Source: Mycoplasma sp. CAG:956 (GTDB lineage: Bacteria > Bacillota_I > Bacilli_A > RF39 > UBA660). From it: 64,000 nucleotides of DNA. The notes under the pieces are model-generated. The model was not told the origin of the DNA, did no database searches, and saw only the letters and a list, made by a program, of their open reading frames with translations. Position numbers and translations under genes: made by a program. The stretch covers positions 133,712-197,711 of the forward strand of contig HF993109.1 of NCBI GenBank assembly GCA_000433475.1, given 5' to 3'. Positions 6,531 through 64,000 of this stretch are shown in pieces. How positions within the stretch are numbered: position 1 is the stretch's first letter; every line of letters starts with the position of its first letter.

Positions 6531-6547
6531 TATAACAATCGAATTAG

Positions 6548-6667: not shown

Positions 6668-6734
6668 TATAAGAAAATATTATCTATAATGGCATTAATA
6701 TATAATTTATAAATTAAATAGGAAGTGACAAAAC

Positions 6735-9359: not shown

Positions 9360-9459
9360 AATAAAATACTATTAAGAAAAAACACTTAATAGTATTTTTA
9401 ATATTGCTAAATTTAAAAAAAGTAGTATAGTATAGAAAATTAATTAAAAAGGGGATTTT

Positions 9460-10857
9460 ATGATTAAAAAAAGTATAAGAAAAAATCCAAAGGATAATTT
9501 TGATGAGTGGTTTAAAATAGCAGCATATTATTATAAAAAACATAACAATCTATTAGTGCCCGCTAACTATTTAACCGAGGATGGTAAAAAATTAGGAGAG
9601 TGGATAATTTATATTCGAACTAAATATAATTCTGATGACCAAAAAATAACTAAAGAGCAAAAAGAAATGCTAGATTCTATTGGTATGGTTTGGAACTTAT
9701 ATGATTATAGATGGCAAGAAAGATTTAATCAAGTTAAAAAGTTTTATGATGAATATGGAACCATAGAACTTTTACCAACCTATCAGGGAAAAGAAGGCTT
9801 AAAACTCTTAAACTGGATAAAATTTCAAAGAAATATTTACTATAGTAAAAGTAAGAAACCAAAAGATCTAGAAAAAATTGCTAAATTAGAAAGTATTGGC
9901 GTCATTTGTCATCATAAAGATGAAATGTGGGTTTCCATGTATAACTTAGCTTTCTTATATTATAAGAAAAACAATAATCTATTGATTCCTGCTTGTTATG
10001 AAACTACTCTTGGTAAAAAACTTGGTATCTGGATAAGAAATCAAAGAAAAAGTTATTCTGATGGTAATTTATCTGAAATTAAAATCGCAGCCTTGGAATC
10101 TATTGGCATGGTTTGGCATGTTTATGAAAATAAGTGGAACCTAATGTATAAAGAAGCCTTAACTTATTATCAAAAATATCATACTATCAGTATTTATAAA
10201 GACTATAAACCAACTTATGTAACCAAAGAAGAACTATGTCAGTGGTTAGCAACTCAAAAGATATATTATAAACAACATAAAAATTTAACTCTTGAGCAAT
10301 ATAAGAAACTAAATTTAATTAAAATAGACTTTGACTATCAAGAAGATAATTGGAATTATATGTATAACTTGGCAACTAATTACTATTTAGAAAATGGTCA
10401 TTTACTAATTCCTAGAACCTTTAAATCTGAAGGTAAGAATTTAGGTATTTGGTTAGAATCACAACGTCAACATTACCAAAAACAAAAACTTTCTGAAGCA
10501 AAAATTCTTCTTTTAGAATCTATCGGTATCATTTGGCAACCGAGAAAAAATCTTTCATCTATATATAATTATTTAGATGAAAATTATCCTTTAATTGATA
10601 AACGACTTAACAGGGATGTTTTAAACCGTATTTCCTTACTAGAACTAATTGCTAAAATTAATTATTTAATTTGTTGTAAACATACTTCCTTTATTTATAG
10701 TAATGGGCTTTTAAAAGATATATTTTCTATGAGTAGTATAGCTATCAAAAATGATCCTAACTATGGTATTTCCTTAGAAGAAATAATTAATACCTATGGT
10801 AAAGAATATATTTTAAAATATAATAAAAATATGAAAGGTAAAACTTTAGACTTATAA
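9460..10857 (+). CDS. HA (helicase-associated) domain repeat protein, 6 tandem HA repeats plus family C-terminal module
   Basis: RBS AAAGGGGA; HA repeats (..W...Y......Y.......L.P..Y.T..GKKLG.WI..QR..Y......E.KI..LESIGMVW); C-term LNRISLLELIAKINYL...NGLLKDIFSMSSIAIKNDPNYGISLEEIINTYG. Confidence 0.75.
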   Translation: MIKKSIRKNPKDNFDEWFKIAAYYYKKHNNLLVPANYLTEDGKKLGEWIIYIRTKYNSDDQKITKEQKEMLDSIGMVWNLYDYRWQERFNQVKKFYDEYGTIELLPTYQGKEGLKLLNWIKFQRNIYYSKSKKPKDLEKIAKLESIGVICHHKDEMWVSMYNLAFLYYKKNNNLLIPACYETTLGKKLGIWIRNQRKSYSDGNLSEIKIAALESIGMVWHVYENKWNLMYKEALTYYQKYHTISIYKDYKPTYVTKEELCQWLATQKIYYKQHKNLTLEQYKKLNLIKIDFDYQEDNWNYMYNLATNYYLENGHLLIPRTFKSEGKNLGIWLESQRQHYQKQKLSEAKILLLESIGIIWQPRKNLSSIYNYLDENYPLIDKRLNRDVLNRISLLELIAKINYLICCKHTSFIYSNGLLKDIFSMSSIAIKNDPNYGISLEEIINTYGKEYILKYNKNMKGKTLDL

Positions 10858-17900: not shown

Positions 17901-19513
17901 ATTTTCCTAATAATGATTTGGCAACAAATTTAATATTAACTGCTAATTCTGAAAAATTTCCGATTACTAGACCTAACTTTTTTAAACAGTTATATCGCCA
18001 TAATGCTGATAATACTTATACTTTAACAATTAATCAGCAAAAATATCCTAAAACAAGCCTAGTTATTCATGAAATTCTAAGTAGTTTTAAAGAATTTCAT
18101 TTAATAAATGCTACCAATGCTCATCAATTATTTGGTAACTTTGATTTTCAATATAATCCTGACTTTTATAATTTTTTCATAACTAATTTAGATACAATAT
18201 TAAATGATACTGAAAATTCTAGGTATTTGGGTTCTATTCAAAAACAATTTAAAGATATTAAAACAATAAATTCTAATCGTCACCTAACTTGGCAGATGGC
18301 AGTTAACTATGTTTTAGAAAATAAGTTTACCAATGTTAATCTTGGTAACGAACAAATGGCTGCTGTTTCATCTATTGCAGGCTATACCCAAGAACAATTT
18401 GAAAAACTACAAGAAATTTATGAATATAGTAAAAGAAGAGTAAAAAGTAGTATTCCTCATATCGAAGAAAGAACTGATGATTACACTTATGAGACCTTAA
18501 GATTAGATGATCCATTAGGTCTTGCTATTGGTACCCTTACTGATTGCTGTCAGGAAATAGATGATGCTGCCGAAGTTTGTATGGAACACTCAATGACAAG
18601 TTCCGATGGTCGTATTTTTGTCATAAAAGATAAAGAAAATAATATTGTAGCTCAAAGTTGGGTATGGCGAAATCAAAATGTTTTATGTTTTGATAATATA
18701 GAAATTCCTCACAAAGCCTTTGAACGAGCTATCCAAAAAAAGATAAATTTAACCCAAGTAGTTTATGATATATATAAACAAGCTGCTAATATTTTATTAG
18801 AAAAAGATAAAGAAATGTATAAGTCTTTATTGGAAAAAGGAAAGATAACAAAAGAAGAATATGATGCCCTATGTTTATCAAAAGTAACTGTTGGATTAGG
18901 TTATAATGATATTGCCGAAGAATTAGAAAAACAAGCAACACTTGATAATGGTATTCTTACTCATCCTCTTGATTATGATGCTCCAGTAAAGTTAAATCGT
19001 AGTCTTTATACCAATGACTCTAAAACCCAATATATTATTGCTGGCAACCAAGATCGTCTAAATAGAAGCCCAATGGAAACTAAAGCTTTATATACCGATG
19101 ACTTTAAAATTTATGATGATACTAACTTCCAAGAAAAAGATTATTTACATTTAATGAAATTAGAACTATTAACTGAAAATGGTAGCGATGATTTGAACTA
19201 TGCATTAACTAAATCAAGAAAAGATGAAAGCTTCCTAACTATTTTAGCTCGTTGTTATAATTTAGATCCTAAAACAACCCAAGTAATTTATAATAGTAAT
19301 ATGTCTATAATCTATGATATAAAAGATGATACCTTAAGAATAGGTAAAATTCTTTATAATTCAAATAACTATGATGTAGCTTATTACCAAATAAAAATAG
19401 CTATAGAAAAAATAGCCCAAGATAAAAATATAGATTTATCATTATCAGATAAAAATACCCAAGATTTATATAACAAAATAAATCTTAATAATGATATAAA
19501 GAGTAGGAGTTAA
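14921..19513 (+). CDS. Giant (1530 aa) cytoplasmic hypothetical protein
   Basis: RBS TAGGAG; no signal peptide or TM; Cys cluster GTLTDCCQEIDDAAEVCMEHSMTS near aa 1190; no family recognised. Confidence 0.75.
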   Translation: MNNKLSIEEFRKYKEQLQKIIDDFKNNYEVMKNNPSYNEAQEEEKSIAAYFKIEQDLFSHDLSAIPYEEYQNLSIMATDQEELDLSNSHANIDFSLIEVFGHCNFKGCNLKNIEKVNDRISPKYLDTDIFLKNKDLFLSSSFPEWFQEKWYYGDLSIEDVTKLDKTLIEELISNPQILYHLSNSHDVYIIRNLGLKKALSIYNYSKEEYQVLNNLIFNLSSANFNKIDQSLTDPEAIIKNIYQISVDDILAVDNEYFKRRLKPESYHQKFVEANENIFKTKSNLPEDVKNRYYEHNLSVNDVLNNYEEFKNIPLLGFMKSITSSSKDIICNINLAYGSMAFQQVYPLYPKLIKHLNDADIFLSFNKNYDVKTGLRDAVTNCLECFKEKKVPDWANEMFTSIVPKYYDISNLKKYNPQICLYDPLQRKIVETNNVDNAIKFNDETHFFDYVDDRSPVNAFILYLKRSNIDFKEFATYQEFRAFMAEHLGKMREKNYFKDYDSYAFIPTYSKAFYQDFRHIFIDLNSNGTLQKAFYDNRLTPDYIRLYPKCFKDLEHEDLRYVISSDNKKFKEVFIPFYTSHFGNLALLDIFKKYAYNNYLVDSLDQIKLDEGMTKEQIDKKIRSITYSNILKYSQFYWKNLKSDPLFAKEYPELILSEDEIMTPSGIVQNDIIDKFYRGKLTFDDIFTCKPLALALQHKNINVAIRNNSTYYFGNGMNEAQIYLKQLGQEDFLKLCSTFGKFLDNSINRIKFSNDISYSELCKQLEELTVKKATYEGIPFNESNAPSFLVQQHPELFLDESAPWGLKMAFEDGIDFYSLAANYNETFPFLKDKAAVSFFIRKDKGHKGAIANYFNLFGNIDALKLAGKKPDIVTKMIHHDKVYNLRTWYLKTGGKFIPDPVVMENFPLDDVDKFLTAGFKWSNLMRLSEFTKNDETKEALLKIAYVFGTFDNDDRGYKKVYDLLTELPTKFKEDIGYIFDNLDNALDSNANFNVYFPNNDLATNLILTANSEKFPITRPNFFKQLYRHNADNTYTLTINQQKYPKTSLVIHEILSSFKEFHLINATNAHQLFGNFDFQYNPDFYNFFITNLDTILNDTENSRYLGSIQKQFKDIKTINSNRHLTWQMAVNYVLENKFTNVNLGNEQMAAVSSIAGYTQEQFEKLQEIYEYSKRRVKSSIPHIEERTDDYTYETLRLDDPLGLAIGTLTDCCQEIDDAAEVCMEHSMTSSDGRIFVIKDKENNIVAQSWVWRNQNVLCFDNIEIPHKAFERAIQKKINLTQVVYDIYKQAANILLEKDKEMYKSLLEKGKITKEEYDALCLSKVTVGLGYNDIAEELEKQATLDNGILTHPLDYDAPVKLNRSLYTNDSKTQYIIAGNQDRLNRSPMETKALYTDDFKIYDDTNFQEKDYLHLMKLELLTENGSDDLNYALTKSRKDESFLTILARCYNLDPKTTQVIYNSNMSIIYDIKDDTLRIGKILYNSNNYDVAYYQIKIAIEKIAQDKNIDLSLSDKNTQDLYNKINLNNDIKSRS

Positions 19514-26828: not shown

Positions 26829-29381
26829 ATGGAAAAAAAGAATAAAGGCTTTACAATCCCTGAACTTTTGGCTGTTATTGTTATAATTGGCATCTTAGTA
26901 ACCATAGCATCCGCAAGTTATAATGGAATTAGTAAAACCTTAAAAGAAAAAACATATCAAAATAAAATAAACTTGATAAAAACTAAAGCCGTTGAATATG
27001 CAACCGATAATAATGTTGATGCTGAAACTATAAGTGTTGCAAAATTATTAAATGAAGGCTATCTAGAATTGGAAAATGATACGGAAGCCAATGAAAAACT
27101 AAATAATCCTAACGGTGGTTACTTAGATTGCTACCAAGTAAGCATTAATAAAAATATCGATGATTATGATATCAATGTTACTAGTGATGATACTTGTAAT
27201 ATGGCAAATCTTGATAATGCTTCTAGTAAAATTACTATTTATGCTTATGAGACAGAAAAGGTAAATAATAATGTTCAGATTAATTATGAAGCCTTAGGTA
27301 GTAATAACAATACTAAATGGACAAATAAAGACGTTTACTTATTTATTGATCCTAAAACTTTACCAGTTGAAGAACTAAGTAATGTTAAAATAACTTGGAC
27401 TCTTAATAATGAAATAATTACTAAAAATGGTAATTTAACTGATAGTGTTTCTAGTAATTTAGATTATGCCAATATCTATCAGGTAGAAACTAATTACTTA
27501 TATAATGCTATGGTAACTGCTCAGATTGAAATCGATGGTAAAAGATATAGTCAAAAAGCCAGTGTTAAGATTGATAAAGAAAAACCTAGTGTAGCTCTTG
27601 ATTTTAATGCTAGTTATGAAAAAATGGATGAACAAACGAGAAGAGCTACTAAAATTATTAATTTTAATGGTTCTGATGGTAGTGGTTCTGGTATTGGTCT
27701 TACTAAAGAAAATAATACTGTAGTTGGTTATTTCCTTACTGATGATGCCACTTACGTACCAAGTGCTAGTGACTTTAATATAACAACTGAGGCTCATCAA
27801 ACTAATGCTTATGAAAATGGTACTTATTATGGTTATACCATCGATGCTGTAGGTAATATTTCTAATCCTACTAGTATCAATATTGACAATGTTACTTACG
27901 ACTTACCAGTTTGTTTATTACCAAATGCTAATAAAACTTGGACTAACAAAGATTATACTTATACCTATGGCTGTAAAAATGATAAAGGAACTGGTTGTTC
28001 TTATGAATTAATAAGTAAAACTGTAACTACTGATACCGATACTTTACCAGATTTTGAATGGAAAGCAACTGATAATACTGGTAACTCTGTTAATTGTGAA
28101 TCTAAAGGCTTATCTGTTAAAGTTGATAAAACCGCACCAACTTGTAATATTACTGTTATAAGTGGTACCTTAGGACGTAATAATTGGTATACTACTGATG
28201 TTAAGTTAGCCCTAAATTACTCTGATAATTTAAGTGGCATAGCAGCATATGGCATTACAACCAGTACTAATGCCGACTTTAATTCAGAAAAAGAAACAAC
28301 CCTAAATTTTGATACTCCAGGTATAACTTACTATGGTTATGTTAAGGATAATGCTGGTAATGTAGGTACTTGTAATATTACTGTTAAAAGATTAACAACA
28401 CCACCAACTTGTAATCTTTCTCTAAGTGGTACTAAAGGAAATAACAATTGGTATCGTTCTAATGTTGCTGTTACTATGCAAACAAATGGTTATGGTATAA
28501 GTGAAAAGAAAATATACTCACCAAACGGTGCAGTAAATAATGATTATTATACGTTAACTTATGATACTAATAATGCTACTATTACTGGTAATGTGACTAA
28601 TGAAGCTGGTTTAACTGGTACTTGCTCTACAATTATAAAAAGAGATGTTACCCCGCCAGTTGCAACCTTAAGAATGAAAACTACTCATTATTGTTACCAT
28701 ACTATAAATGTAACTACATCTGGTGGTTGTGGTGATAGTAGTAGTTCTAGAGATATTGATTGTACAACTTGGGATAATAAAGGCTTTAATAACAGTTCAA
28801 CTTTAAATAGTTATTTAAGTAGTAATGTTGGCAGTTATAAATCTTATTCTTATAAAGGTAAAACTGAGGGAGATAATGTATCTTATAACCAAGCCGAATT
28901 AGTTTGCTCTGATAATATGACTACTAATGTAAGTTATAAAATAGGTAATAAATCGGGAGCTATTTATGATTTAGATAGCGATTCTAATGCCAGAAGTAAA
29001 ACTAACTATACTATGACCGGTACTTGTACCGATGAAGCTGGTAACCAAGCAAGCTCATCTAAAAACTTTTATCGTTATGAAGATGAACAATACTGTGAAA
29101 AAACCCATACAGAATATACTTGCGATAGTACTCATATCGAAGTTACTAACTGTGATGATGGTAAAAACTATACAACATCTAGTGGTAATAACTGTGGTGG
29201 TGCCGATTCTAACGGTGAATACGGTTCCAACGGTGATGGCTCATATTATGATTGCGGTTGGGGTAGCGGTGGCTCCGGTAGTACCAGTGATTGTGGACAC
29301 GTTAATGAAGTTTGTGACCACGAAACTAGTTACGAAGTATCCGATGGCTTTTATAAATGTGCCGATAATAAATGGAGATAA
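26829..29381 (+). CDS. Large (850 aa) type IV pilin-like / pseudopilin-like protein with class III signal peptide and repeated Ig-like modules
   Basis: RBS AAAGAAAGGA; N-terminus KG/FTIPELLAVIVIIGILVTIASASY (prepilin cleavage G, Glu+5, hydrophobic helix); three ~100-aa modules T.PTCN.(T/S)...G..G.NNWY...V.......D..SG......T......G.TGTC..I.KR; Gly/Ser/Cys-rich C-tail. Confidence 0.65.
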   Translation: MEKKNKGFTIPELLAVIVIIGILVTIASASYNGISKTLKEKTYQNKINLIKTKAVEYATDNNVDAETISVAKLLNEGYLELENDTEANEKLNNPNGGYLDCYQVSINKNIDDYDINVTSDDTCNMANLDNASSKITIYAYETEKVNNNVQINYEALGSNNNTKWTNKDVYLFIDPKTLPVEELSNVKITWTLNNEIITKNGNLTDSVSSNLDYANIYQVETNYLYNAMVTAQIEIDGKRYSQKASVKIDKEKPSVALDFNASYEKMDEQTRRATKIINFNGSDGSGSGIGLTKENNTVVGYFLTDDATYVPSASDFNITTEAHQTNAYENGTYYGYTIDAVGNISNPTSINIDNVTYDLPVCLLPNANKTWTNKDYTYTYGCKNDKGTGCSYELISKTVTTDTDTLPDFEWKATDNTGNSVNCESKGLSVKVDKTAPTCNITVISGTLGRNNWYTTDVKLALNYSDNLSGIAAYGITTSTNADFNSEKETTLNFDTPGITYYGYVKDNAGNVGTCNITVKRLTTPPTCNLSLSGTKGNNNWYRSNVAVTMQTNGYGISEKKIYSPNGAVNNDYYTLTYDTNNATITGNVTNEAGLTGTCSTIIKRDVTPPVATLRMKTTHYCYHTINVTTSGGCGDSSSSRDIDCTTWDNKGFNNSSTLNSYLSSNVGSYKSYSYKGKTEGDNVSYNQAELVCSDNMTTNVSYKIGNKSGAIYDLDSDSNARSKTNYTMTGTCTDEAGNQASSSKNFYRYEDEQYCEKTHTEYTCDSTHIEVTNCDDGKNYTTSSGNNCGGADSNGEYGSNGDGSYYDCGWGSGGSGSTSDCGHVNEVCDHETSYEVSDGFYKCADNKWR

Positions 29382-30680: not shown

Positions 30681-32282
30681 ATGGATATAAATGATAGTTT
30701 AAATAAAGGAATACCAATTAGCGAACCTGTAATTCTTGATAAAACAGATATTGCCAATAACGTTCAAAATAAAGAAAAAATGGAAGATATGTTAAACGAA
30801 TCTATAGTAAAATATCATAACTTTATACTAAGCCAGTCCCAAATATTATTTGGCTTAGAATTTAATGGTGCTATTGCTATAGTAACTGATTTTACTACTT
30901 TAAAACGTAAAATAGAATTTTCTGTTCATGCTTTTTATGATAGTTTAAAACGAAATTTAAATATGTCCTTATCAACAGATGACTTTGCAAGTGATGAAGA
31001 ATACAGAGAGTCTTTAATAAAGCAAGCTAATAAAAAAATAGAAGCTTTAAAAAGAATAAAGACCCCAGCTGAACTTCAAAGAAAATTTCCTGTTTTACAT
31101 AGAAGATATTTATCATGTGTTCAAGAGTATTATCTAGTTAAAAAGAATATTATTGAACCTCTTAATAAGTTAGATCCAATTACTAGAACTAAAAAAATGT
31201 TCCAACTTAATATAGATTTAGAACAAAAAAATCCGTTTTATAATCCTAAAAATAATATTGTAGCTATAATAGATTATACTAATTCATTCAGTTTAAAAAC
31301 ATTTATTGCTTCTTGTGTTATTGCCCTTCCTAATATCATAAATAATAGGGATAAAATAGTTAATTATATTCATAATAATCCTATCGATTTTAGCTTTTTA
31401 GATGATGCTGATAAAGATAAGTTAGAATTATATTTTGCTTACTGTAATTTAAAACAAGCCAATAATGCTGATAGTAAATATAAACAAGATTATTTATATT
31501 ATGTATCTAATTACTTTAAAGAACATAAAGATACTACAGATGATATTTCTATAATAGTGGGTGCTAGTGATGGTAAAACAATTCAAAGTGGCATTCTTAC
31601 AACCATTTGCCAAGAAGTAAGTACTGGAATAATTATAACACCCAAAATTCTATATGAATTATACCGAAAAGTTTTAATTGAAAATCCTAACTTAAAAATA
31701 ATTGACTTTTCTAGTTTTGATTTTACGGGTATGAATTTAGATGAAGTATCTGCGTTTACAAATGAATATTTAAAAGACTTAGAAGTTAACTGGGAACTTT
31801 TACCACCAGATGATAAAACATTTGAAGAAGATATTATAAGACACTTAAAAGAATCAAGCAAAAATTTAAAAGATGAAACTAAGGAAGAACATGAAAAAAG
31901 ACTATTAGAATTATTTATGAAAAAAAAGAACTTATATGATTCTACCAATCCACTCTTTAGAATAATGGGTAAAAATACTTTTAATGGCTATATTGGCTAT
32001 GTTTATCCCAATGGACGTGTTGTTTTAGATAGATTTTATGATAAACAAAATGATTCTACTCTTGCTGATGGCAATGCCGTTTATGCTATGAATATCGAAG
32101 AATTTTATGAACTAAGTAAGCTAAGTAAATCCGAACTTATTCGAAGTAAGTTGTGCCGAAGATATATTCATAAAGGCAATTGGACAAGTAAAGTCTTAGC
32201 AAAAGAAATTAAGTTAAATGTTTATGATAAAAAGTCTGTTAACGTAAGAAGTCTGCTTAAAAAAGATTCTGATAAAAAGTAA
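30681..32282 (+). CDS. Hypothetical protein (533 aa), cytoplasmic, no recognised domain
   Basis: RBS AAAGGGGGAAA; long ORF with typical codon usage. Confidence 0.7.
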   Translation: MDINDSLNKGIPISEPVILDKTDIANNVQNKEKMEDMLNESIVKYHNFILSQSQILFGLEFNGAIAIVTDFTTLKRKIEFSVHAFYDSLKRNLNMSLSTDDFASDEEYRESLIKQANKKIEALKRIKTPAELQRKFPVLHRRYLSCVQEYYLVKKNIIEPLNKLDPITRTKKMFQLNIDLEQKNPFYNPKNNIVAIIDYTNSFSLKTFIASCVIALPNIINNRDKIVNYIHNNPIDFSFLDDADKDKLELYFAYCNLKQANNADSKYKQDYLYYVSNYFKEHKDTTDDISIIVGASDGKTIQSGILTTICQEVSTGIIITPKILYELYRKVLIENPNLKIIDFSSFDFTGMNLDEVSAFTNEYLKDLEVNWELLPPDDKTFEEDIIRHLKESSKNLKDETKEEHEKRLLELFMKKKNLYDSTNPLFRIMGKNTFNGYIGYVYPNGRVVLDRFYDKQNDSTLADGNAVYAMNIEEFYELSKLSKSELIRSKLCRRYIHKGNWTSKVLAKEIKLNVYDKKSVNVRSLLKKDSDKK

Positions 32283-50906: not shown

Positions 50907-52661
50907 TTGCAAAAGAAAGAAAAAAACTTAACCATAACTCAAGAGGAAATCGAAAGTAACCATATTGTTAAATCAACTAAGTCTTATTTAATAGTATTTA
51001 GTATTTTATTTCTATCTATTTTATTACTGTTAGTAGGTAGTCTTTTCCGTACTAATATTACCCCTGATTATCCAATTGTATTTAAGGGAGCTGATAATCG
51101 TTTAATGGTAATAACTCGTAATAACGATGTTAATGATATAACCAATATTGAAGAAACGGATATAGTCTATGCTAATAGTGATGTTAGATATATCCTTTAT
51201 ACTGATAAGAATACATTATATCTTCTAGATACTACCAGTACAAATAACAAAAAAATCTTAACTAATAATGCTAATAGTTATGGCTTTAGTAGTGATGATA
51301 AATATGTTTATTATATAGAAAACAACAAAGATCTTCATCTTTATAACAGAAAAACTGCTTCTGATACTCTTATTGATACCGATGTAACAAAATTTTTAGA
51401 CATTTCTTTAAACTATGCTATATATGAAAAAGATAATTGCCTAATTGTAAAAGATATTGAAACTGGTTCTTCAGATATAGCAGCCAAGTCTTATGAAGAA
51501 ATTATTCTAAGTAAAGATGGTAAAAAGATGCTTTATTCTAATTTAAATACAGATGAATCTTTAAATTACTATTTATATAATTTTGTTGATTCTAGTAATG
51601 AACGTATTCTAACTGATATCGAAGAACTATTAAGTTACAATGCCAATTTTACTAAATTTATCTATACTACTAAAACTACTGATACAATAAATATTTATAA
51701 TAACATTAAAGATAGCAAAGCTAGTAGTGATAAAAAATTTGTGGCTTTAGACAAAGATAGTGTAACTAAAGAAGAATACGAAGCTAATCAAAAATTAGAA
51801 GCAGAAATAAATTTACGTAACGAAATGCGTGATTATGCCAAAAACTATACTGTTAGTGCTTATGATGTTTATTATCAAAACAATCAAACCAAAACTTTAC
51901 TAGCCAGCAGTGTTAATAAAGTTTACATAAATGATATAACAGACCGTAAATTAATCTATACAAAAATGAATTGGAATAGTAATTTTGACTTAGCAAGTTA
52001 TACATCCTTAGAAGAGTTTAAAAAAGACATTGAAACTAATAAAGAAAATGGACTTTACTATAAAGTAATTGATACTGAAGCTTCTCTTGTAAAAGAAAAT
52101 GTCAACGAAACTCTAGTGGTTGAGTTACTAAGTGGCGATGGTATTTATTTTAGTGAAGATAATAATTTATATTACAGTAAAGTTACCAATAAAAAAGCTG
52201 GTGCTTATAAACTAGTAGCGGAAAATCTAATTAATCCTATAAAAGATATGACTAGTGATGTTGGCTTAATTTATTTAGTTAAAGAAAATGATACTAATAC
52301 TTTAAAATATATTAGTGGTGGTAAATCAAGCATTATCAGTACTAATGTTTATCCAGAATACATAACAATTTCAGAAACAGAAAATGCTATTTATTATTTA
52401 AAAGATTATGAAAATAATCAAGGAAAATTAATGCTTTATAACGGCATTATTAATAGTAAGATTGCTGATGGTGTTAATTCATTCATTTATATTAATGATG
52501 ACTTAATGTATGCAACTAAAAACTTTGATGAAAAGAGTAGTACATGCGATTTATATCGCTTAAATGGTAGTAAATTAACTTTAGTTTATAAGGGAGTTTC
52601 AAAATGGTATAATCCTATTGCCAAAGAAAGTACTAACGATGAAAAAGCCCTAGCTAATTAG
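50907..52661 (+). CDS. N-terminally membrane-anchored hypothetical protein (584 aa)
   Basis: TTG start after GAGGTGA RBS; TM YLIVFSILFLSILLLLVGSLF; large extracytoplasmic domain. Confidence 0.6.
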   Translation: MQKKEKNLTITQEEIESNHIVKSTKSYLIVFSILFLSILLLLVGSLFRTNITPDYPIVFKGADNRLMVITRNNDVNDITNIEETDIVYANSDVRYILYTDKNTLYLLDTTSTNNKKILTNNANSYGFSSDDKYVYYIENNKDLHLYNRKTASDTLIDTDVTKFLDISLNYAIYEKDNCLIVKDIETGSSDIAAKSYEEIILSKDGKKMLYSNLNTDESLNYYLYNFVDSSNERILTDIEELLSYNANFTKFIYTTKTTDTINIYNNIKDSKASSDKKFVALDKDSVTKEEYEANQKLEAEINLRNEMRDYAKNYTVSAYDVYYQNNQTKTLLASSVNKVYINDITDRKLIYTKMNWNSNFDLASYTSLEEFKKDIETNKENGLYYKVIDTEASLVKENVNETLVVELLSGDGIYFSEDNNLYYSKVTNKKAGAYKLVAENLINPIKDMTSDVGLIYLVKENDTNTLKYISGGKSSIISTNVYPEYITISETENAIYYLKDYENNQGKLMLYNGIINSKIADGVNSFIYINDDLMYATKNFDEKSSTCDLYRLNGSKLTLVYKGVSKWYNPIAKESTNDEKALAN

Positions 52662-55369: not shown

Positions 55370-55972
55370 CTATCTGTTGTAATATTCAACGATTAATGCT
55401 TCATTAATATCAGGATTTAATTCGCTTCTATCTGGATAACGAAGATATTTTCCTGTTAATTTATTAGCATCAAATTCAACATAAGCAGGTCTATTTAAAG
55501 TAGCTTCAACAGCAGCTTTAATAGCAGGATGGTCTAAAGATTGTTCTTTAACAGCGATAACATCACCAGGTTTTACTGTATATGAAGGAATATCAACTTT
55601 GATACCATTAACAGTAATATGACCATGATTTACAATTTGACGAGCAGCACGACGAGTAGTAGCCATTCCCATACGGTAAACTACATTATCAAGTCTTGTT
55701 TCAAGAAGTTGAAGTAAGTTTTCACCAGTAATACCAGCCATTTTAGTAGCACGTTTAAATGTTTTAGCAAATTGTTTTTCATTTAAACCATACATAAATC
55801 TTACTTTTTGTTTTTCTTGTAACTGAACACCATATTCACTTAGTTTTCTTCTTCTATCTTGTCCATGAATACCAGGAGCATAAGGTCTTTTTGCAAGTTC
55901 CTTACCATTTTCTAAAGTAGAAAAACCAAGATGACGTGATTTCTTATATTGAGCACCAGTGTATCTTGCCAT
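55370..55972 (-). CDS. rpsD: 30S ribosomal protein S4
   Basis: [16 protein letters not shown]...; 200 aa; RBS AAGGAG. Confidence 0.95.
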
Positions 55973-56265
55973 AAATAATTCTCCTTTCTTTATATTTGCT
56001 TTTACTTAGTACGAGCCATCATTAAATAGGGGAGTCTATCTAGATATTTTCTCATAGGCAGAGATAGATACTAATAACCATTTCTGGGATAGACACATCT
56101 ACTAAACTTTGGCACTGCCAATTAAATGCAAGAATAATTTATCATATCCTTAATTATAAGTCAATTAAACTATGAAAATTTGTACAAATTTGTCAGAATA
56201 AATTGTTTTTTTAATGAAAAAATGATATTCTTATATTAGTTATGATAGAGAAGGACAGTGTATGT

Positions 56266-57123
56266 ATGAAAAATAAATTGAAAATAAATTTTAAAGACAA
56301 AAAGACTATTATTATCTCCATATTATTAGGACTTATCTTAATTAGCCTAATAATATTTATTTGTACAAAGGTATTTCATAAAGATAAAGAATTGACTCCA
56401 GATGATCCAACAACAAAAGAATTTGAAAATTATTTAAAAGATGCTATAAAACCTTTTGATGAAGATACTATAAAAGATTTTATTAGTAGTACTGATAATG
56501 TTGCCAACGTTGATGAAATATACTTAGCAACAACTCATTCTGCTGATATAGATAAAGAAGTAAAAATCTTATATACATTAAGTAGAATGTTTTATAACGA
56601 TTCTGATATAGTTCATTATATGTCAGGAGCTAATATGTTTGATGAAGATACTGAACTTGGCAATGTAAAACTATCGATTAAATTCATTAACAAAGCTCTA
56701 GCAGCTAAATTTAATGATACAACCATTGATCCAGATACAACAATTACCGATGGCTTTTTTAGAGGAATAAATGCTGTTATTTGTGATGATACATATTGCA
56801 TAATTCCAATATCTAAAACCCAAGAAACTTCTAATGAATCAGATGGATTGTATGAAAGTGTATTTGAAAACATAACCAAAACTTCAAATGGTTATGAATT
56901 AGTAGGTAAATACTATTATTCTGAATTTAGTATGGATGGAGATATGACTTTAGGTGTTTATAATAATATCTTTAAAGAAAAAACTTTCTGTGAAGTATCG
57001 CTTTGGAATGTTTACTTAACCGATGGCGAAGTACCAGAAGAATGTCAAAAAGATAGTGAATATGATAAAGTTAAATACTATTTCGATAAAAACTATCACT
57101 TTATTAAATCAGAAAATGTGTAA
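56266..57123 (+). CDS. N-terminally membrane-anchored hypothetical protein
   Basis: ATG 56266 after GAAGGA; TM IISILLGLILISLIIFICT; several Cys in extracytoplasmic part. Confidence 0.55.
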   Translation: MKNKLKINFKDKKTIIISILLGLILISLIIFICTKVFHKDKELTPDDPTTKEFENYLKDAIKPFDEDTIKDFISSTDNVANVDEIYLATTHSADIDKEVKILYTLSRMFYNDSDIVHYMSGANMFDEDTELGNVKLSIKFINKALAAKFNDTTIDPDTTITDGFFRGINAVICDDTYCIIPISKTQETSNESDGLYESVFENITKTSNGYELVGKYYYSEFSMDGDMTLGVYNNIFKEKTFCEVSLWNVYLTDGEVPEECQKDSEYDKVKYYFDKNYHFIKSENV

Positions 57124-57138
57124 GAAAGGAGTTAAACT

Positions 57139-57855
57139 ATGAAAAAAAATTACTTTATTTTTGGAATTATTGGCTTACTTGCTTGTGTTAAAGTAAATGC
57201 TGAAGTCTGTCCTTTTGAAACCCAAGTTGCTATTAATAATGATGCTGGTTCTGTAAGTGTTAGTACTTCTCCTTTTGAATATGAATTTACTGATACCGAT
57301 ACAGAGACTGATGAAGAATATGATGGCACTGCCTACACTGGCTTAGTTCACATTTATAATTTAACTAAAAATATATATGCTGTAGCTAGTGATGGTACTA
57401 ATAAAATAACATTAAATTATGATGAGGAAAATCCTAATCAAGTAACATTTTCGACTGGTGGTATGGCATTCTTAAAAGAATATAAGATATCAATATATCC
57501 AACTAATACAAGTTGTGGCAAAACGGCTATAAGAGAACTTAATGTCACAGTTCCTAGATTAAATCGTTATTATTCATATGATTCTTGCAGCGATTATCCT
57601 GATTATTTTTATTGCCAACAATTTCTAAGTGTTGAAGATATATCGGAAGAAGATTTTGTTAACGGACTTGATGAATATGCTAAAAGTAATAAAAAGAAAA
57701 GTGATGAAAATCGCAAAGAAGGAATAATAGATGGAACTAAGGATTTTCTAAAAGATCACTGGTTAATTACTGCAATAATTACAATTGTAATTGTAGGTAG
57801 TATTGGTACATTTATATTCTTTAAAAGAAAAAAGAGAAAGGAGCATATCGTCTAA
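57139..57855 (+). CDS. Secreted protein with signal peptide and C-terminal TM anchor + basic tail
   Basis: RBS AAGGAG; SP MKKNYFIFGIIGLLACVKVNA; C-term ITAIITIVIVGSIGTFIFFKRKKRKEH. Confidence 0.6.
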   Translation: MKKNYFIFGIIGLLACVKVNAEVCPFETQVAINNDAGSVSVSTSPFEYEFTDTDTETDEEYDGTAYTGLVHIYNLTKNIYAVASDGTNKITLNYDEENPNQVTFSTGGMAFLKEYKISIYPTNTSCGKTAIRELNVTVPRLNRYYSYDSCSDYPDYFYCQQFLSVEDISEEDFVNGLDEYAKSNKKKSDENRKEGIIDGTKDFLKDHWLITAIITIVIVGSIGTFIFFKRKKRKEHIV

Positions 57856-60800
57856 TGAAAAAAAATAGTAAATTATTAAGTGTCACATTATTTTTAATAT
57901 TAACTTATTTTATTGCAATCCCCAATACTTTAGCTAAAAAGATACAATGTACATATAACAAAACTATAAATGTTGGTGGCCTAGATTCCGCTTACAATGG
58001 TAGCAAGACTATCGATTTAACCAATATTGTAAAATATTGTGATCATGATTTTGATACATCAACGGATTCAATTACTTCTGCTAAGGGTGATTATGTCAAT
58101 GCTACTGCTAAAGATAATAAAGTCACTCTATGGTATTTAAATAATTTAAAAAACGATACGACTGAAACTGAAATTACAATTAAATATAAAAAACCAGTAC
58201 CAATCGGAAGTGCTTTTGGAAGTGATTCTCATACTATTGTTGCAAAAGTTAAACTAGTAAAAACAACTCTCAAACCTGAGATTACAAAAGAAGTTACTAT
58301 TAACACTAAAGAATTAGAAATTAAAAGTTTAGTAGAAGAGTATATGAAAACACACTCAACTAATAAAGAATTTGATGAAACAAAATATAAATATAAATCT
58401 AAAAATTTAGTTAAAAATGGTAATATTGCCTTTTTAACAGGTATGCCTGGAGATATTAATAAGGTTGCTGTAGATGTTAATGCCTTAGCTAAACAGACTA
58501 ATAGCATTAGCAATAATTTGATTATTAAATATTCTTATGCTGGTACTAATTACCAATTAACTGTCCATGTTAACTATAAATATGGTTTTGGAATAACTAC
58601 AATAAATAAAAATTATAATCAAAAAGATTTTGAACATGGAAGTATAAAAATAAATCTAAAAAACGAAGTGGCAAAATCTCAAGGAAATGTTAGTTCTTCT
58701 AGAGTTACTATCGAATCAATCGATTCAGGTAATGGCTTTTTGGTTGGCAAAAAAGATACTAATGAAATAATAATATTTGCGGGCGAAGTTAAAACTTTAA
58801 AAGTAAATACAGTATCTAATCTTAATTTTAAGTATAGAATAGATGGTGGTGTTCTTAAAACTGGCATTTTTAAAGCTAATATTAGAGTAGATGGTAGCCA
58901 ATCATCTTCTAGCAAAACTGATACAGGAACAACAACTCCTGAAGAAGAGGCTTGCTACGAATTTTCTAATACTGGTATTTACTACTGGGGAACAAAAACC
59001 AATGCTGAAGCCAAAAGTCAAGGAATGATGCCTAAAATAACGACTAAGACTAAAGCTGAATGTAATGCTACAAATGCTACAAAAAAGGATACTGATGAAG
59101 AAGCAGATGCTGCCCAGACTCCCGATAGTGGTCTAGCCAGTGGAACATCATCAGTTACTGAATTAGGTGAAAATGCTTGTAAAAGTTATATTATTAGAAG
59201 AGTAAGAGGATATAACTCATCAAGTACCAAGATTCCAACATACAATGATAGCTATTTTAGAAGTGCTATTGGTTTAGCTGGTTCTGCTTATCAATATTAT
59301 TACGTTTATAAAGCAACTTATAATTGCAGTGGTTATGATAAAAATACTAATGTAACTGCTTTCTGTATTGATCCAGGAGCTAGAGGTGCTGAAAATACTG
59401 GTACTAAATATAATGTTGGTAAAACTATAGATAAAGATAAAGCCTTAGGTAAAGGTTTATATCATTTATATACATATTGGTATTTAGATCATCGCAGTGA
59501 GATAAGTTCAACCTATAGTGGTACTAGTCCAAATGGGGCTGAGGATTTAGTTGATTATGTTATTAACAATGTTGCCCGTCAATTAGTTAGCAAATATGGT
59601 GCAGCTTCTGGCATAACATTTACTAATCCTTTAAAAAACGGATATGGTAATAAGAGTCAACTTACATACGAATATAATGCTTATAAAACAAAAACAGTTG
59701 GTATTGATGCTCTAAGCTCCCTTAAGAGTAAAGAAATACTTACTAAAGTATGGCAAGATACTGATGATTATGCAAGTGGCAGAAAGAAAGATGAAAGTAA
59801 TCAAACAGATGTTAAATTCGGTATTAATCTTGATTCTTCATCAACTAAAAATAGTAAAAAAGGCTTCGATGCTGAATTTACTGTTACTATTCAAACTCAA
59901 GACAAAGATATCTTAAAAGCTATTACTGAAAATTATAAAATTACTGCTACCGTAGTAGAAAATGGTACAGAAAAAGATATTACGGATGGTATAACTAGTT
60001 CAATCGATGAATCAGGATGGCAAACAAGTAGTGATGGTACAACTATGACAGCTAAGTTCAAAGCATCCGCTGAAGACATCTATAGTTATGTCTCAGAAAG
60101 TGCTATTGATAATGTTAAAATTAACTTTAACATTCATTATTCTGACAAACGTTCAATCAATAATATCATGTATTTAACACCAACTGGTGGTAAATATCAA
60201 AAATTTATTTCTTTCTTAAATGGTACTATTGATACTAAACGTTCTGTATCAATTGAAATGGGTAAGCAAGAAGTTAACAATTGTCGTCCAACATTTGCTA
60301 TGCCATGTGTTGATAAAGAAACTGTTGTATATTTAATTGAAGGAACTCAATCTGGAACATTATATAATACCGTTATGAATGGTATTAAGTCTGCTGGTGA
60401 TGTTAAAAATATTATAAGTAATGCTTATAACATGGTTAAATCATTACTTGATAATGGTCTTAGTGGTTTAGGTGATTCTGAATTAAAATTAATTAGTAGT
60501 TTTATTTACAATATTGCTGATAAAGTAAATATTACTGGTAATATAAAAAATGAACTTTCATTCTTACAAACTTTAGGAAATAACGGTAATAATACTGCTA
60601 AACAATTATATCAATTATTAACCAATACACAATTTACATCAGACAGTAAACAAAACTATACTCAATTACAAAGTTTATTTGTAAGTAGCATTTTAAATGC
60701 TTTAACTGGTGGGTATGATAAATTAGTTAGTGAATGGCAAGAAATCCTTGCTACTGCCGAAAAACAAGTATCAAACAGTAAGCTTTCAAAATCAACTTAC

Positions 60801-63800
60801 GAATTATTAGAAAATATTCAAAATTTAATTACTAGTGCTAAAGATGGAAATGGACTATCAGGCATCTTGAAAGGTGCTACAACTTTAGCCGAAAATTTCT
60901 TTAAAGATTTAACTGATGTAAGTTCTATTAAAGAATTAGCCGTTTCCTTCGGAGCAGCTATTTCTGGAGCAATTCAATCAGCTAGTGGCAACTTACAAAA
61001 TATATATCAACAATTAAGTAATACTTGGAGTCAAATATTTAATATTAATAGTCTAAGTGATATTAATATCAGTGGCTTATATAATTCCTTAACAAGTGCC
61101 TTTACAGTTGACTGGGAAAAATGTATCATTGGTGAGGGTAATACCGAAGCTACAGATCCAGGTGGAAACTCTTATACCGTTCAAGCCCAAAATATGTATT
61201 GTAAAGTTGTTTGTAAAGAAGACTATGCTATAAAAATGCCAGGAAACTTAGGAACTGTTTATGCTGGTCAAAATTTATCTACTAATATTGATAATATCTA
61301 TCATGCTACTATTGGTATGGCTGGTCAAAGAACTTGTGTAAGTACTAAAATAGATAATGATTCTTATGTAAATGATGCTGCGGCTGTAAAAGATAATATT
61401 TTAACAGCATATAATGAATTCCAAAAGCATTATGCCCATTATAAAGAATTAAAAAATAATTATAGTCAATTTGAAAATAAAGATAAAGAAGCTTATAACG
61501 ATAAAAAAGTTGTATCCGTTGATATATCGTTAGATGGTGTAAAAGCTGACTTTGAAAATGTTATTAAAACTACAATGAGTACTTTCTTAACTAACTTAGT
61601 CAATCCAACTAATGAAGAACAACGTGATTTACTAGATACTTTAAAACAAGAGCTTACAAATAGTTTAGCAGGGGATAATGGTATCGTTATGAAATTAATT
61701 GGTACCTTCATGCAAAAGGGAAGTATTGGAGCCGATGATATAAGTAGTGTTTTAACATCTTCTATCGGAAGTAAAGGTGAAGAATTAGCAAATGGCTTTA
61801 AAAAACGATTTGAAGATGCTTTATCGACAACTGCAACATCACTTCAAAATCAATTAGAAACAATTGCTAAAAAATATGCTACTGACGGTGCTTTATCAGT
61901 TGGTAGTACCGCTGGTAAAATGGCTTTATCAGCAGCATGCAAAATTTTAACTAGACTTCCTTATGTAAATGCTGTTGCAACACCTGTTTGTGAAGCTTAT
62001 GCTGGTGCTACAACAATTGCAAGTAATGCTATAACCTCTGTTAGTAAAGCAACTATTAACAACTTAAAAATATTTGCTATTCATGATTATTCAAATATTA
62101 GTTTAGATGGCTCATATAATAAGTTTAAATATAATACTACCAATACTGATAATATTTCTAAATTAAAAGCTTCCATAACAGAAAATAGTGAAATTGCAAA
62201 TGAAGGTAATTTAACATTTAGTAAAGATAGAAAACAATTATGGGTAATGGAATCAGGTTCTTATAATGTTTCTACCACATATTTTGGTATCTCTGTAGAT
62301 TTAACTATGTTAAAGAAAGCCTTTGATAGCTTTAGTAATTTAGGTAATGCTGATTATGGAGTAATATCAGATACCCTAGAATATATAACAAAAACCGTTT
62401 CTAAGTTAGGAGAATCTACTAGTTATTCTAGTGCTAAAGGCTCAAAAGAAGCTTTAGAAAAAATGCAAAATTCTGGTGTTTTAGACAATGTTCTTTCTAT
62501 TATCGGTAATTTAACTCAAGCCTTAGGAGACATTAGTGGAGCCTTAGGAAATGCTCAAACTGATATAACTAAATATGTTGATACAGCCCTAGATGGTATC
62601 TACTACTTACTTGGTGCCTTTAATCCATACTATTATCAAGTAGCACTTGTAAGAGAGCAAATGCTAAATGCTAAAAATCAATATGATGAATATCGTAAAC
62701 AATTAGAACAACTTGCTGGTAATATGAACCAATGTACAATGTTTGCTAATGAATATGAATTTGATCCAGACTTAGTATTTACTTATGGATATCCAAATAA
62801 TAGTCTATTAGATTATATTGTTGATAAGAAAAATAGTACAGCTGATTCTATTAGACTAAAAGCAATTAATCCTCAAGAATCTGCTGAAACTGTAACTTAT
62901 TATTGTAAAGATGATGTTCCAATTAATAACATTCAAGATATTTCAACTATAATGAGTGGTAAGTGTACAACATCTGATGGTATGTTTGGTGGTATTGTTG
63001 CCTCAGTATTCGGAAGTGATAGTCAAATGTCAACTATCTTGAAAAAATTCCAAGAAAATTCTGATGGTTTACGCAAATTGCTAAATAATGATAAAGTTAA
63101 AGAATATATAAATAGTACTGGTTATGCATCAAAACTTAATGACGTCTTATGTTCTGGTCTTGGTACATCATTCTGTGATTTACTTGATACCGATGATACT
63201 GATGGAGATTCTTTAATTACTAATGTTCCAGGTGATATTGTTTATACTTTAAAAGATACTAAATTATCTACTAGTTCTTGGAGCAATGTTAAATCAATAT
63301 TTAGTGGTGGCATTCATGAAATCGATAAAAATATTACTAATAGTTTAAAATATACAACAACTGGTGATAACAAATTTACTTATCGAAATGCTAAACGAGT
63401 AGTTAGTGTTTCCAGATATGGTAATCCAGGTGTGTCTATTTCTGGTTTAAGCTTTACAAGTTTATTATCAAATATTGCTTCTTGGATATCTAGTGAAGCT
63501 GGTGGCACTACATCAGATGCCCTAAATAAAATCAATGATACTGTTATGAGTGTAACTGGACAAGGTGCTCAAAAATTCATTTACTATCAATCAAGCTTGC
63601 CTTACTTTACGACATCTAATAAAGGTATCTATACAACCTCATCGGCACCTAGCGATGCAATTTATATCGATGCTGGTGATAAAGCTTTAACTGATGATAA
63701 AATTAAGACTACTGATGGTTCGAAAAAAGAAGCAAATGGTTTAGTATATCCAATTGCCTTATCAACAGCATCAGGAACTTATAGTTATCAAATAAAAATT

Positions 63801-64000
63801 AACAATGTTGGTCAATATTATAATAATACTTTAGGTCTTGGACGTATCATTGATAATAATGGTTATGTAAGTGGTTTACTAGCAAACCAATATGTATGTA
63901 AATACGAAGTTGAAACAGAACCACCTACACCAAATCCAACGTGTGAAGAAATCTTAGAATCATCTGATTGTAAAGATGAAAATGGTTACTTTAAAGATTT
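57855..64000 (+). CDS. Giant secreted protein, 3'-partial (>2048 aa), with Gly/Ala/Ser small-residue helical segments
   Basis: ATG overlaps upstream stop (TAATG); SP MKKNSKLLSVTLFLILTYFIAIPNTLA; frame 3 open to window end (spot-checked at 58200, 61440, 63960); absent from ORF track only because no stop is reached; segments such as AVSFGAAISGAIQSASG and GALSVGSTAGKMALSAA. Confidence 0.7.
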   Translation, partial: MKKNSKLLSVTLFLILTYFIAIPNTLAKKIQCTYNKTINVGGLDSAYNGSKTIDLTNIVKYCDHDFDTSTDSITSAKGDYVNATAKDNKVTLWYLNNLKNDTTETEITIKYKKPVPIGSAFGSDSHTIVAKVKLVKTTLKPEITKEVTINTKELEIKSLVEEYMKTHSTNKEFDETKYKYKSKNLVKNGNIAFLTGMPGDINKVAVDVNALAKQTNSISNNLIIKYSYAGTNYQLTVHVNYKYGFGITTINKNYNQKDFEHGSIKINLKNEVAKSQGNVSSSRVTIESIDSGNGFLVGKKDTNEIIIFAGEVKTLKVNTVSNLNFKYRIDGGVLKTGIFKANIRVDGSQSSSSKTDTGTTTPEEEACYEFSNTGIYYWGTKTNAEAKSQGMMPKITTKTKAECNATNATKKDTDEEADAAQTPDSGLASGTSSVTELGENACKSYIIRRVRGYNSSSTKIPTYNDSYFRSAIGLAGSAYQYYYVYKATYNCSGYDKNTNVTAFCIDPGARGAENTGTKYNVGKTIDKDKALGKGLYHLYTYWYLDHRSEISSTYSGTSPNGAEDLVDYVINNVARQLVSKYGAASGITFTNPLKNGYGNKSQLTYEYNAYKTKTVGIDALSSLKSKEILTKVWQDTDDYASGRKKDESNQTDVKFGINLDSSSTKNSKKGFDAEFTVTIQTQDKDILKAITENYKITATVVENGTEKDITDGITSSIDESGWQTSSDGTTMTAKFKASAEDIYSYVSESAIDNVKINFNIHYSDKRSINNIMYLTPTGGKYQKFISFLNGTIDTKRSVSIEMGKQEVNNCRPTFAMPCVDKETVVYLIEGTQSGTLYNTVMNGIKSAGDVKNIISNAYNMVKSLLDNGLSGLGDSELKLISSFIYNIADKVNITGNIKNELSFLQTLGNNGNNTAKQLYQLLTNTQFTSDSKQNYTQLQSLFVSSILNALTGGYDKLVSEWQEILATAEKQVSNSKLSKSTYELLENIQNLITSAKDGNGLSGILKGATTLAENFFKDLTDVSSIKELAVSFGAAISGAIQSASGNLQNIYQQLSNTWSQIFNINSLSDINISGLYNSLTSAFTVDWEKCIIGEGNTEATDPGGNSYTVQAQNMYCKVVCKEDYAIKMPGNLGTVYAGQNLSTNIDNIYHATIGMAGQRTCVSTKIDNDSYVNDAAAVKDNILTAYNEFQKHYAHYKELKNNYSQFENKDKEAYNDKKVVSVDISLDGVKADFENVIKTTMSTFLTNLVNPTNEEQRDLLDTLKQELTNSLAGDNGIVMKLIGTFMQKGSIGADDISSVLTSSIGSKGEELANGFKKRFEDALSTTATSLQNQLETIAKKYATDGALSVGSTAGKMALSAACKILTRLPYVNAVATPVCEAYAGATTIASNAITSVSKATINNLKIFAIHDYSNISLDGSYNKFKYNTTNTDNISKLKASITENSEIANEGNLTFSKDRKQLWVMESGSYNVSTTYFGISVDLTMLKKAFDSFSNLGNADYGVISDTLEYITKTVSKLGESTSYSSAKGSKEALEKMQNSGVLDNVLSIIGNLTQALGDISGALGNAQTDITKYVDTALDGIYYLLGAFNPYYYQVALVREQMLNAKNQYDEYRKQLEQLAGNMNQCTMFANEYEFDPDLVFTYGYPNNSLLDYIVDKKNSTADSIRLKAINPQESAETVTYYCKDDVPINNIQDISTIMSGKCTTSDGMFGGIVASVFGSDSQMSTILKKFQENSDGLRKLLNNDKVKEYINSTGYASKLNDVLCSGLGTSFCDLLDTDDTDGDSLITNVPGDIVYTLKDTKLSTSSWSNVKSIFSGGIHEIDKNITNSLKYTTTGDNKFTYRNAKRVVSVSRYGNPGVSISGLSFTSLLSNIASWISSEAGGTTSDALNKINDTVMSVTGQGAQKFIYYQSSLPYFTTSNKGIYTTSSAPSDAIYIDAGDKALTDDKIKTTDGSKKEANGLVYPIALSTASGTYSYQIKINNVGQYYNNTLGLGRIIDNNGYVSGLLANQYVCKYEVETEPPTPNPTCEEILESSDCKDENGYFKD

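Follow-up and report, generated by a model that had tools for sequence, protein, structure and literature searches.

A giant secreted protein, very probably carrying a thioester domain, is encoded in a Tad-like operon of Mycoplasma sp. CAG:956 and related gut Bacilli: a candidate covalent adhesin

The stretch of Mycoplasma sp. CAG:956 DNA analysed here (64,000 nt; contig HF993109.1 of assembly GCA_000433475.1, positions 133,712 to 197,711 of the forward strand; hereafter the window) ends within a very large gene downstream of rpsD, which raises the question of what role its secreted product, referred to below as the giant protein, plays in the host. An initial annotation, made from the sequence alone, placed this gene at the end of an operon and guessed at either a surface adhesin or a toxin-like exoprotein. 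We propose, with moderate confidence, that the giant protein is a covalent adhesin, exchangeable between cassettes, which is displayed by a Tad-like machine without a recognizable pilin or prepilin peptidase, while the toxin-like exoprotein represents a minor rival reading.

The giant gene is real and under purifying, but somewhat relaxed, selection. Six-frame translation agrees with the initial annotation in placing three co-directional plus-strand genes after rpsD, which is divergent (55370-55972, minus strand), and the predictions of a membrane-anchored protein (A), a protein with a signal peptide and C-terminal anchor (B) and a signal peptide-bearing giant also hold. The giant ATG at 57855 overlaps the preceding stop as described, sharing one base with the TAA of gene B (TAATG), with AGGAG located 11 nt upstream, and the 2048 codons between 57855 and 64000 are free of in-frame stops. 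Downstream sequence, which had been called for to complete the gene, is available in same-species contigs from many metagenomes (L001-L007; 99% DNA identity), where the product is complete at 2273 amino acids and the stop codon falls 674 nt past the window end. Strain-to-strain differences in the gene comprise 23-35 synonymous and 12-21 non-synonymous substitutions, giving a ratio of non-synonymous to synonymous substitution rates (dN/dS) of 0.10-0.19, compared to values of mostly 0.02-0.08 for neighbouring housekeeping genes. As the gene is complete in same-species contigs and the strain substitutions are mostly synonymous, it is a real gene rather than a chance open reading frame. Strong within-species positive selection was rejected on the basis of the same ratio; the diversification of the giant sits between species and between cassettes.

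Comparisons of the giant with Pfam, NCBIfam, PHROGs and the PDB sequences gave no match, and PDB sequence and profile searches with its family were likewise empty. A thioester domain (TED) was considered for the first conserved module (residues 426-825) because of the motif AFCIDP, and structural modelling indicates that the giant very probably carries such a domain there. AlphaFold2 was run on a smaller family member, P0139 (1194 amino acids), using a 55-sequence family alignment, and returned a model with a mean predicted local distance difference test (pLDDT) score of 77, with values of 76-96 across module 1. A Foldseek search with this model produced two matches at E ≤1e-3, both of which are chains of the class II TED structure 6fwy. 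The modelled module thus has the TED fold, with a β-barrel and a helical head. Furthermore, seven β-strands (residues 272-380) are placed between a helical subdomain (191-265) and Gln387 in P0139, which is the class II arrangement. The bond-forming Cys of characterized TEDs occurs in the context [YFL]C-hydrophobic-hydrophilic and the bond-forming Gln in the context hydrophobic-Q-hydrophilic-hydrophobic-hydrophobic, and among the motif residues only these two are universal, the TQXX-hydrophobic-W motif being dispensable for bond formation (PMC6194298). In the giant family, the corresponding columns each hold the expected residue in 54 of 55 representatives, with the Cys lying within [FYL]C-hydrophobic-[DENQ] and the Gln within the complete published pattern. 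Cys504 of the window protein (59364-59366; residues 502-505, FCID) and Gln782 (60198-60200; residues 781-785, YQKFI) match the two motifs, and are predicted to form the internal thioester. The earlier guess of a surface adhesin thus finds backing in module 1, where a modelled thioester-adhesin domain can be aligned and the Cys/Gln pair is retained.

The remainder of the giant was divided into segments (Table 1) on the basis of alignment occupancy across the family and mapping onto P0139. A signal peptide is present in every family member read, and in the window protein it is the sole strongly hydrophobic segment, with all others reaching a hydropathy of at most 1.3 over 19 residues. The hydropathy scan revealed no internal or C-terminal transmembrane (TM) segment, and neither an LPXTG-like anchor, typical of TIE proteins, nor a Cna or other Pfam domain was found. 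Residues 1-400 share 15-68% identity among close relatives versus 65-98% over the remaining sequence, and the variable N-terminus of the window protein matches no enzyme or toxin family in Pfam or NCBIfam. In paralogues of other genomes this region contains a Peptidase_M15 domain or a collagen-like repeat. The former, a Peptidase_M15/VanY domain with the motif SKHNLGVALD, is found at approximately residue 220 of the L028 paralogue (5563-10182; the same protein as P0142), while the latter, a (GNx/GSx)n repeat, begins at approximately residue 171 of the L032 paralogue (5346-9989).

The three small-residue stretches highlighted in the initial annotation are present, at approximately residues 1029-1045 and, for the other two, within the variable region 1201-1599 (one of them at 1345-1361). 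Their interpretation as membrane-like Gly/Ala/Ser zippers does not stand, since their hydropathy (≤1.3) comes nowhere near the value for the signal peptide (1.83), and they may rather represent soluble, lineage-specific helical insertions restricted to the largest family members or to the variable helical region. The first insertion occurs only in members of approximately 2000-2450 amino acids and falls between residues 454 and 455 of P0139; its predicted helical nature derives from its composition and its position in the helical-hairpin regions of the model. Region 1201-1599 corresponds to a long helical hairpin in the small homologue, which is expanded in the window protein. Modules 2-4 are conserved, Cys-rich and without a fold match. 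Module 2 has the consensus WxxCII...CKEDY..PG...GQRxCVxTxID, and module 4 is the segment most often matched in distant relatives. The many Cys residues remarked upon earlier amount to 30 in the full-length protein.

Contrary to the initial description, the giant gene is not the last in the operon. Six further genes follow at gaps of 2-30 nt, giving a nine-gene order in the sister-species contigs L008 and L009 and in species-level loci, and a terminator-like hairpin is located directly 3′ of the ninth gene, with none between the giant and the gene that succeeds it. The first of these genes codes for a 267 amino acid protein of the DUF5411 family (PF17424; e-value: 2e-52), which is weakly pilin-like and is without a conserved cleavage site. 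It is followed by genes for two paralogous CpaB/RcpC-like proteins (TIGR03177; e-values: 3e-6 and 8e-6; PF16976; e-values: 8e-6 and 1e-4; all below the curated cutoffs). RcpC has been described as forming a conduit through the periplasm for the Tad pilus (PMC12307814). The next gene encodes a CpaF-like ATPase (PF00437, T2SSE; Bitscore: 101; cutoff: 24.9), whose best solved relative is CpaF (e-value: 1.5e-19) and whose best NCBIfam matches, all far below cutoff, are VirB11 (1e-34), a TadA-family conjugal transfer-associated ATPase (2e-30), TrbB and FlaI. This ATPase ends in a long, N/S/Q-rich low-complexity C-terminus, the length of which varies widely between species, with total lengths of 359-641 amino acids (L008 19351-20994; L010-L050). 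The last two genes encode polytopic membrane proteins of 300 and 262 amino acids, whose place, size and topology fit the TadB/TadC platform.

Relatives of this system are found in a range of uncultured Bacilli. Searching giant residues 1075-2273 with HMMER against 1.84 billion representative proteins recovered 70 relatives at E ≤1e-3, a word-indexed homologue search (with the single sequence and a 34-sequence profile) returned five close clusters, and a genome scan with a DUF5411 profile identified 41 loci from distinct metagenome-assembled genomes (MAGs). The hosts are uncultured gut and rumen Bacilli, Tenericutes, Coprobacillus CAG:605 and Erysipelotrichaceae MAGs, as well as two MAGs labelled Muribaculaceae, and the host lineage occurs in human-gut, rabbit and rumen metagenomes. 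The two Muribaculaceae (Bacteroidota) labels, attached to Bacilli-type operons (L045 and L049), probably reflect mis-binning.

The DUF5411 cassette of each locus that extends far enough contains a signal-peptide protein of 708-2449 amino acids. This large protein is usually encoded directly upstream of DUF5411, while DUF5411 and B precede it in L023, L025 and L028, and the machine genes are located downstream wherever the contig extends. All of the large proteins for which the loci were examined (36/36) are encoded in DUF5411 cassettes and form one BLAST-connected family. DUF5411 is found next to the genes for the CpaB-like proteins and the ATPase in every machine locus, including those of species with giants that share less than 30% identity. 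Several MAGs carry extra cassettes away from the machine genes, in the order A-B-giant-DUF5411 or DUF5411-B-giant(-giant), and every cassette, including the remote ones, retains the DUF5411 gene; no second cassette copy was found within the window. The locus adjoins rpsD in six species-level loci as well as in contig L008 of the sister species. Within the most distant group (L039-L049; e.g. L042 2601-6736), A and B are replaced upstream of the large protein by a 519 amino acid protein with five TM segments together with N-anchored proteins of approximately 600 and 260 amino acids, and the large protein may be without the thioester module.

Conservation across the locus is markedly uneven. Relative to the related species L012, the rpsD and M16 peptidase products share 98% and 88% amino acid identity, respectively, the ATPase shares 97%, the platform-like proteins 99% and the CpaB-like proteins 92-95%, while identity falls to 79% for DUF5411, 65-68% for A, 51% for B and 41% for the giant. 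More generally, machine proteins are 92-99% identical between genomes whose giants share 35-41%. The DUF5411 protein is itself split, with an N-domain that is 80-95% identical and a C-domain that is 27-66% identical.

A mechanism can be proposed from the complete gene, the operon layout, the synteny across the family, the TED fold of a homologue and the conserved Cys/Gln pair. We infer in it that the thioester forms and acts on a target, that the giant is physically linked to DUF5411 and that a filament exists. The giant is exported by Sec and remains outside the cell, where its thioester could react with an amine on the target and thereby tether the bacterium covalently, in the manner of SfbI, Cpa and the TIE proteins. 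The hypervariable N-terminus (residues 28-400) may form the 'business end' that gives specificity, while the long helical insertions may serve as a spacer or stalk that gives reach. As the giant has neither a sortase signal nor a membrane anchor, it is presumably held and presented by its operon partners, with modules 2-4 potentially docking to A and B and/or to the C-domain of DUF5411, which is specific to each cassette, and the conserved DUF5411 N-domain plugging into the shared machine. The latter could build a short filament or pseudopilus that passes through a CpaB/RcpC-type ring, and so carry the adhesin past the envelope. The cassettes, which comprise DUF5411, B and the giant and in the close clade also A, would then be interchangeable tips on one machine. 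A further-reaching version, which we consider less likely than not, is that the operon represents an uncharacterized branch of type IV filaments in monoderm gut Firmicutes, without a prepilin peptidase or canonical pilin, with the leaderless DUF5411 protein as filament or adaptor and exchangeable, rapidly evolving giants as covalent tips, and with a motor that is possibly retractile, making the adhesin a covalent 'harpoon'.

Several observations weigh against the proposal of a covalent adhesin on a Tad-like machine. The TQXX-hydrophobic-W motif is absent from the giant, the family consensus at this position being AARxL with no conserved Gln or Trp. The Pfam TED and NCBIfam TQXA_dom models do not match the giant at E ≤1, the Pfam and NCBIfam TED models matched 0/26 relatives at E ≤0.01, and PDB sequence profiles fail to detect module 1 as a TED. 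The spacing between Cys and Gln is 278 residues, compared to 171-204 in solved class II TEDs, and the fold was predicted for P0139, which is 29% identical overall to the window giant, and not for the window giant itself. From the alignment, the most distant family members (approximately 1000 amino acids) may be without a TED altogether. On the side of the machine, neither the window nor seven representative loci contain a small open reading frame for an Flp pilin (G-x4-E followed by a hydrophobic helix), none of the operon genes codes for an A24 prepilin peptidase (TadV) and no membrane protein with the GxGDxK motif is encoded in the window or any locus, while no class III signal peptide was found in the window or the loci scanned. 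The 300 and 262 amino acid membrane proteins show no T2SSF, Pfam, NCBIfam or PDB-profile match and no similarity to one another by hhalign, and it is genomic context alone that suggests a link between the giant and the machine. An assignment of the two membrane proteins as TadB and TadC, which hidden Markov models, PDB profiles and hhalign leave unsupported, has been retained as a positional inference only.

The cassettes found far from the machine genes would also fit if the giant were a stand-alone adhesin tethered by B and/or A, with the Tad-like genes as neighbours making an unrelated pilus. Sec export requires no special machine, and B is membrane-anchored and has conserved Cys residues. 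The remote cassettes nevertheless retain DUF5411, which in turn lies beside the genes for the CpaB-like proteins and the ATPase in each of the machine loci, despite giants that are less than 30% identical, and the short intergenic gaps, the position of the hairpin and the conservation split between the DUF5411 domains also argue against this explanation, which we consider unlikely. That the giant is instead a released exoprotein or effector, with the Tad-like genes acting as a piston akin to that of a type II secretion system (T2SS), which would push Sec-exported giants across the wall, and the variable N-terminus as a toxin or enzyme payload, is also unlikely, for other reasons: the TED fold and its Cys/Gln pair are the most conserved recognizable feature of the family and have a role in attachment in every characterized case, membrane-anchored A, B and DUF5411 proteins accompany each giant, and the N-terminus of the window protein has no match to an enzyme or toxin family in Pfam or NCBIfam. 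This explanation would account for the lack of an anchor on the giant itself, for the cell-wall peptidase (Peptidase_M15/VanY) domain at the variable N-terminus of one paralogue and for the failure to find a pilin or prepilin peptidase in the DNA scanned. The T2SS and Tad machines, moreover, share a common ancestry.

The VirB11 and conjugal transfer-associated matches of the ATPase raise the prospect of a mating or DNA-transfer apparatus, in which the giant would be a mating-pair adhesin comparable to p34 of pLS20, a sortase-independent class II TED adhesin that is required for conjugation. This is very improbable: those matches are far below cutoff, CpaF is the closest relative with a solved structure, the operon and its flanks were found to contain no gene for a relaxase, a coupling protein or a VirB4-like protein, and the position next to rpsD in six species-level loci and L008 is that of a core chromosomal operon. 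A membrane protein of the YhgE/Pip kind, or a tail, tape-measure or fibre protein derived from a phage, is effectively refuted, and nothing beyond the size of the giant and its helical composition rich in small residues speaks for it. The initial annotation had recommended searching for YhgE/Pip-, tape-measure- and RTX-like regions, and this lead was not borne out, with no match in Pfam, NCBIfam or PHROGs and no internal TM segments, let alone multiple ones; no phage genes are located nearby and the chromosomal context is conserved.

Among the known systems closest to the giant are the class II TIE adhesins (BaTIE, SaTIE, EfmTIE86 and pLS20 p34), which are likewise Sec-exported surface proteins of Firmicutes. 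These share with the giant a TED head, a β-sandwich inserted before the Gln strand and the Cys and Gln motifs, and p34 also has no LPXTG sortase signal. The giant differs from them in being three to four times larger, in the location of its TED, which is not N-terminal but preceded by approximately 400 hypervariable residues, and in the replacement of the Cna-type isopeptide stalk by helical insertions and unmatched Cys-rich modules. In contrast to the TIE adhesins, it has no TQXX-hydrophobic-W motif, escapes detection by the Pfam and NCBIfam TED models and has its gene within a Tad-like operon. Another thioester adhesin, Cpa (Spy0125), which is located at the pilus tip of Streptococcus pyogenes, is joined covalently to its pilus by sortase, whereas the candidate filament here would be of the type IV/Tad kind and any attachment of the giant non-covalent or of another kind.

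A parallel for the cassettes is provided by the Tad-like Kil pilus of Myxococcus, which has interchangeable KilLMN tip cassettes (PMC12075869). As in the system described here, one Tad-type machine is accompanied by several paralogous cassettes scattered in the genome, and the largest cassette protein resembles the giant in having long helices, a β scaffold and many Cys residues, with the variable domains turned to the outside. The Kil tips are, however, minor pilins of the TadE/F/G type with prepilin-peptidase sites, while the giant has an ordinary Sec signal peptide and its sole pilin-like partner, DUF5411, is without a conserved cleavage site. Furthermore, the present lineage is monoderm and without a secretin, and a TED has not been reported for the Kil tips. 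PilY1 is a Sec-exported tip adhesin, and the PilY1/PilC proteins of type IVa pili and the giant are alike in that they are large, Sec-exported, non-pilin proteins encoded with pilin-like partners and have a variable N-terminal and a conserved C-terminal part; the giant shows no sequence similarity to them and fold searches gave no β-propeller or vWA match.

Among published accounts, the one nearest to this machine concerns a computationally predicted operon of Clostridia (Roseburia, Ruminococcus and Eubacterium) that encodes CpaF, PilC/GspF, DUF5411 and an internalin-like protein (Miller et al. 2022; PMC9523054). It has a similar make-up, with eight to nine 'secretion-related' genes and an adhesin-like partner in gut Firmicutes, but the partner is internalin-B-like where here it is a giant TED protein, and the platform proteins of the present operon are not recognizable as PilC/GspF. 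While TED adhesins and Tad-type machines are each known, their combination was not found in the searchable literature, and the same is true of a TED this divergent, of the giant helical and Cys-rich scaffold and of the apparent absence of both pilin and peptidase.

Table 1. Positions of the operon start, genes A and B and the segments of the giant protein in the window
Feature	Position	Strand	Basis or remarks
Promoter-like site, TTGGCA-18-AATAAT	56109..56138	+	rpsD/gene A divergent region; consensus match alone, weak
Gene A, 285 aa, N-terminal TM anchor and extracytoplasmic domain	56266..57123	+	No family match; conserved upstream of B in the close clade
Gene B, 238 aa, type I membrane protein	57139..57855	+	Signal peptide, four invariant Cys, C-terminal TM helix
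Giant gene, codons 1-2048 of 2273	57855..64000	+	No in-frame stop; runs past window edge
Sec-type signal peptide, residues 1-27	57855..57935	+	Hydropathy 1.83
Hypervariable lineage-specific N-terminal region, residues 28-400	57936..59054	+	Occupancy ~0.4 or less
Module 1, class II-like thioester domain (predicted), residues 426-825	59130..60329	+	Predicted Cys504, Gln782
Insertion 1 (predicted helical), residues 826-1075, contains AVSFGAAISGAIQSASG	60330..61079	+	Occupancy 0.29
Module 2, residues 1076-1200	61080..61454	+	Most conserved block; beta-rich, fold unmatched
Variable, mostly helical region, residues 1201-1599	61455..62651	+	Alignment occupancy, P0139 model
Module 3, residues 1600-1700	62652..62954	+	Conserved, beta-rich
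Insertion, residues 1701-1825	62955..63329	+	Only in largest family members
Module 4 start, residues 1826-2273, conserved Cys-rich C-terminal region	63330..64000	+	Continues past window

Upstream of the giant, the promoter-like site between rpsD and gene A is not enriched relative to shuffled sequences in this AT-rich DNA. Gene A has an alternative ATG at 56242, which would extend its product to 293 amino acids, and in the close clade it is kept 5′ of B with 49-85% identity. The gene B product has a predicted signal peptide cleavage site (VNA/E) and a C-terminal TM helix followed by a basic KRK tail, and contains no LPXTG motif. Searches of Pfam, NCBIfam and PHROGs gave no usable family match for either A or B. 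Gene B adjoins a giant-family gene in 21 loci among those read, and its product is listed in 142 blocks of the assembly collection; an exact-sequence look-up with B led to the same-species contigs.

Genes beyond the operon include, in the sister species, a pair coding for an AAA_21 ATPase and RloB located 3′ of the operon terminator (L008 22914-24742; L009 14889-16717), which is OLD/abortive infection-like and may belong to a defence island. A gene for an MvaI/BcnI-type restriction endonuclease is found upstream and varies between strains and species (L004 532-1281; L008 171-920). Elsewhere in the window, six further large plus-strand open reading frames have no Pfam family and no homology to the giant cassette, namely 840-4355 (1171 amino acids), 10949-13561 (870), 14921-19513 (1530), 26829-29381 (850), 30681-32282 (533) and 50907-52661 (584). 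Interleaved with the large orphan genes are two genes for proteins with four to five 'helicase-associated' (HA) repeats (PF03457; e-values: ~1e-66 to 1e-68; 5379-6530 and 9460-10857, both plus strand), and a weak PF03457 match is also found in 840-4355.

If the proposed role is correct, reduced-genome gut bacteria would spend 6.8 kb on a single covalent adhesin that is diversified between species and cassettes, and this diversification would point to an arms race over a receptor on the host or on partner cells. The range of thioester domains would furthermore reach far past what sequence models detect and into non-sortase display, and a concrete cargo open to testing could be assigned to the DUF5411/CpaF operon family, which to date has been predicted only computationally.

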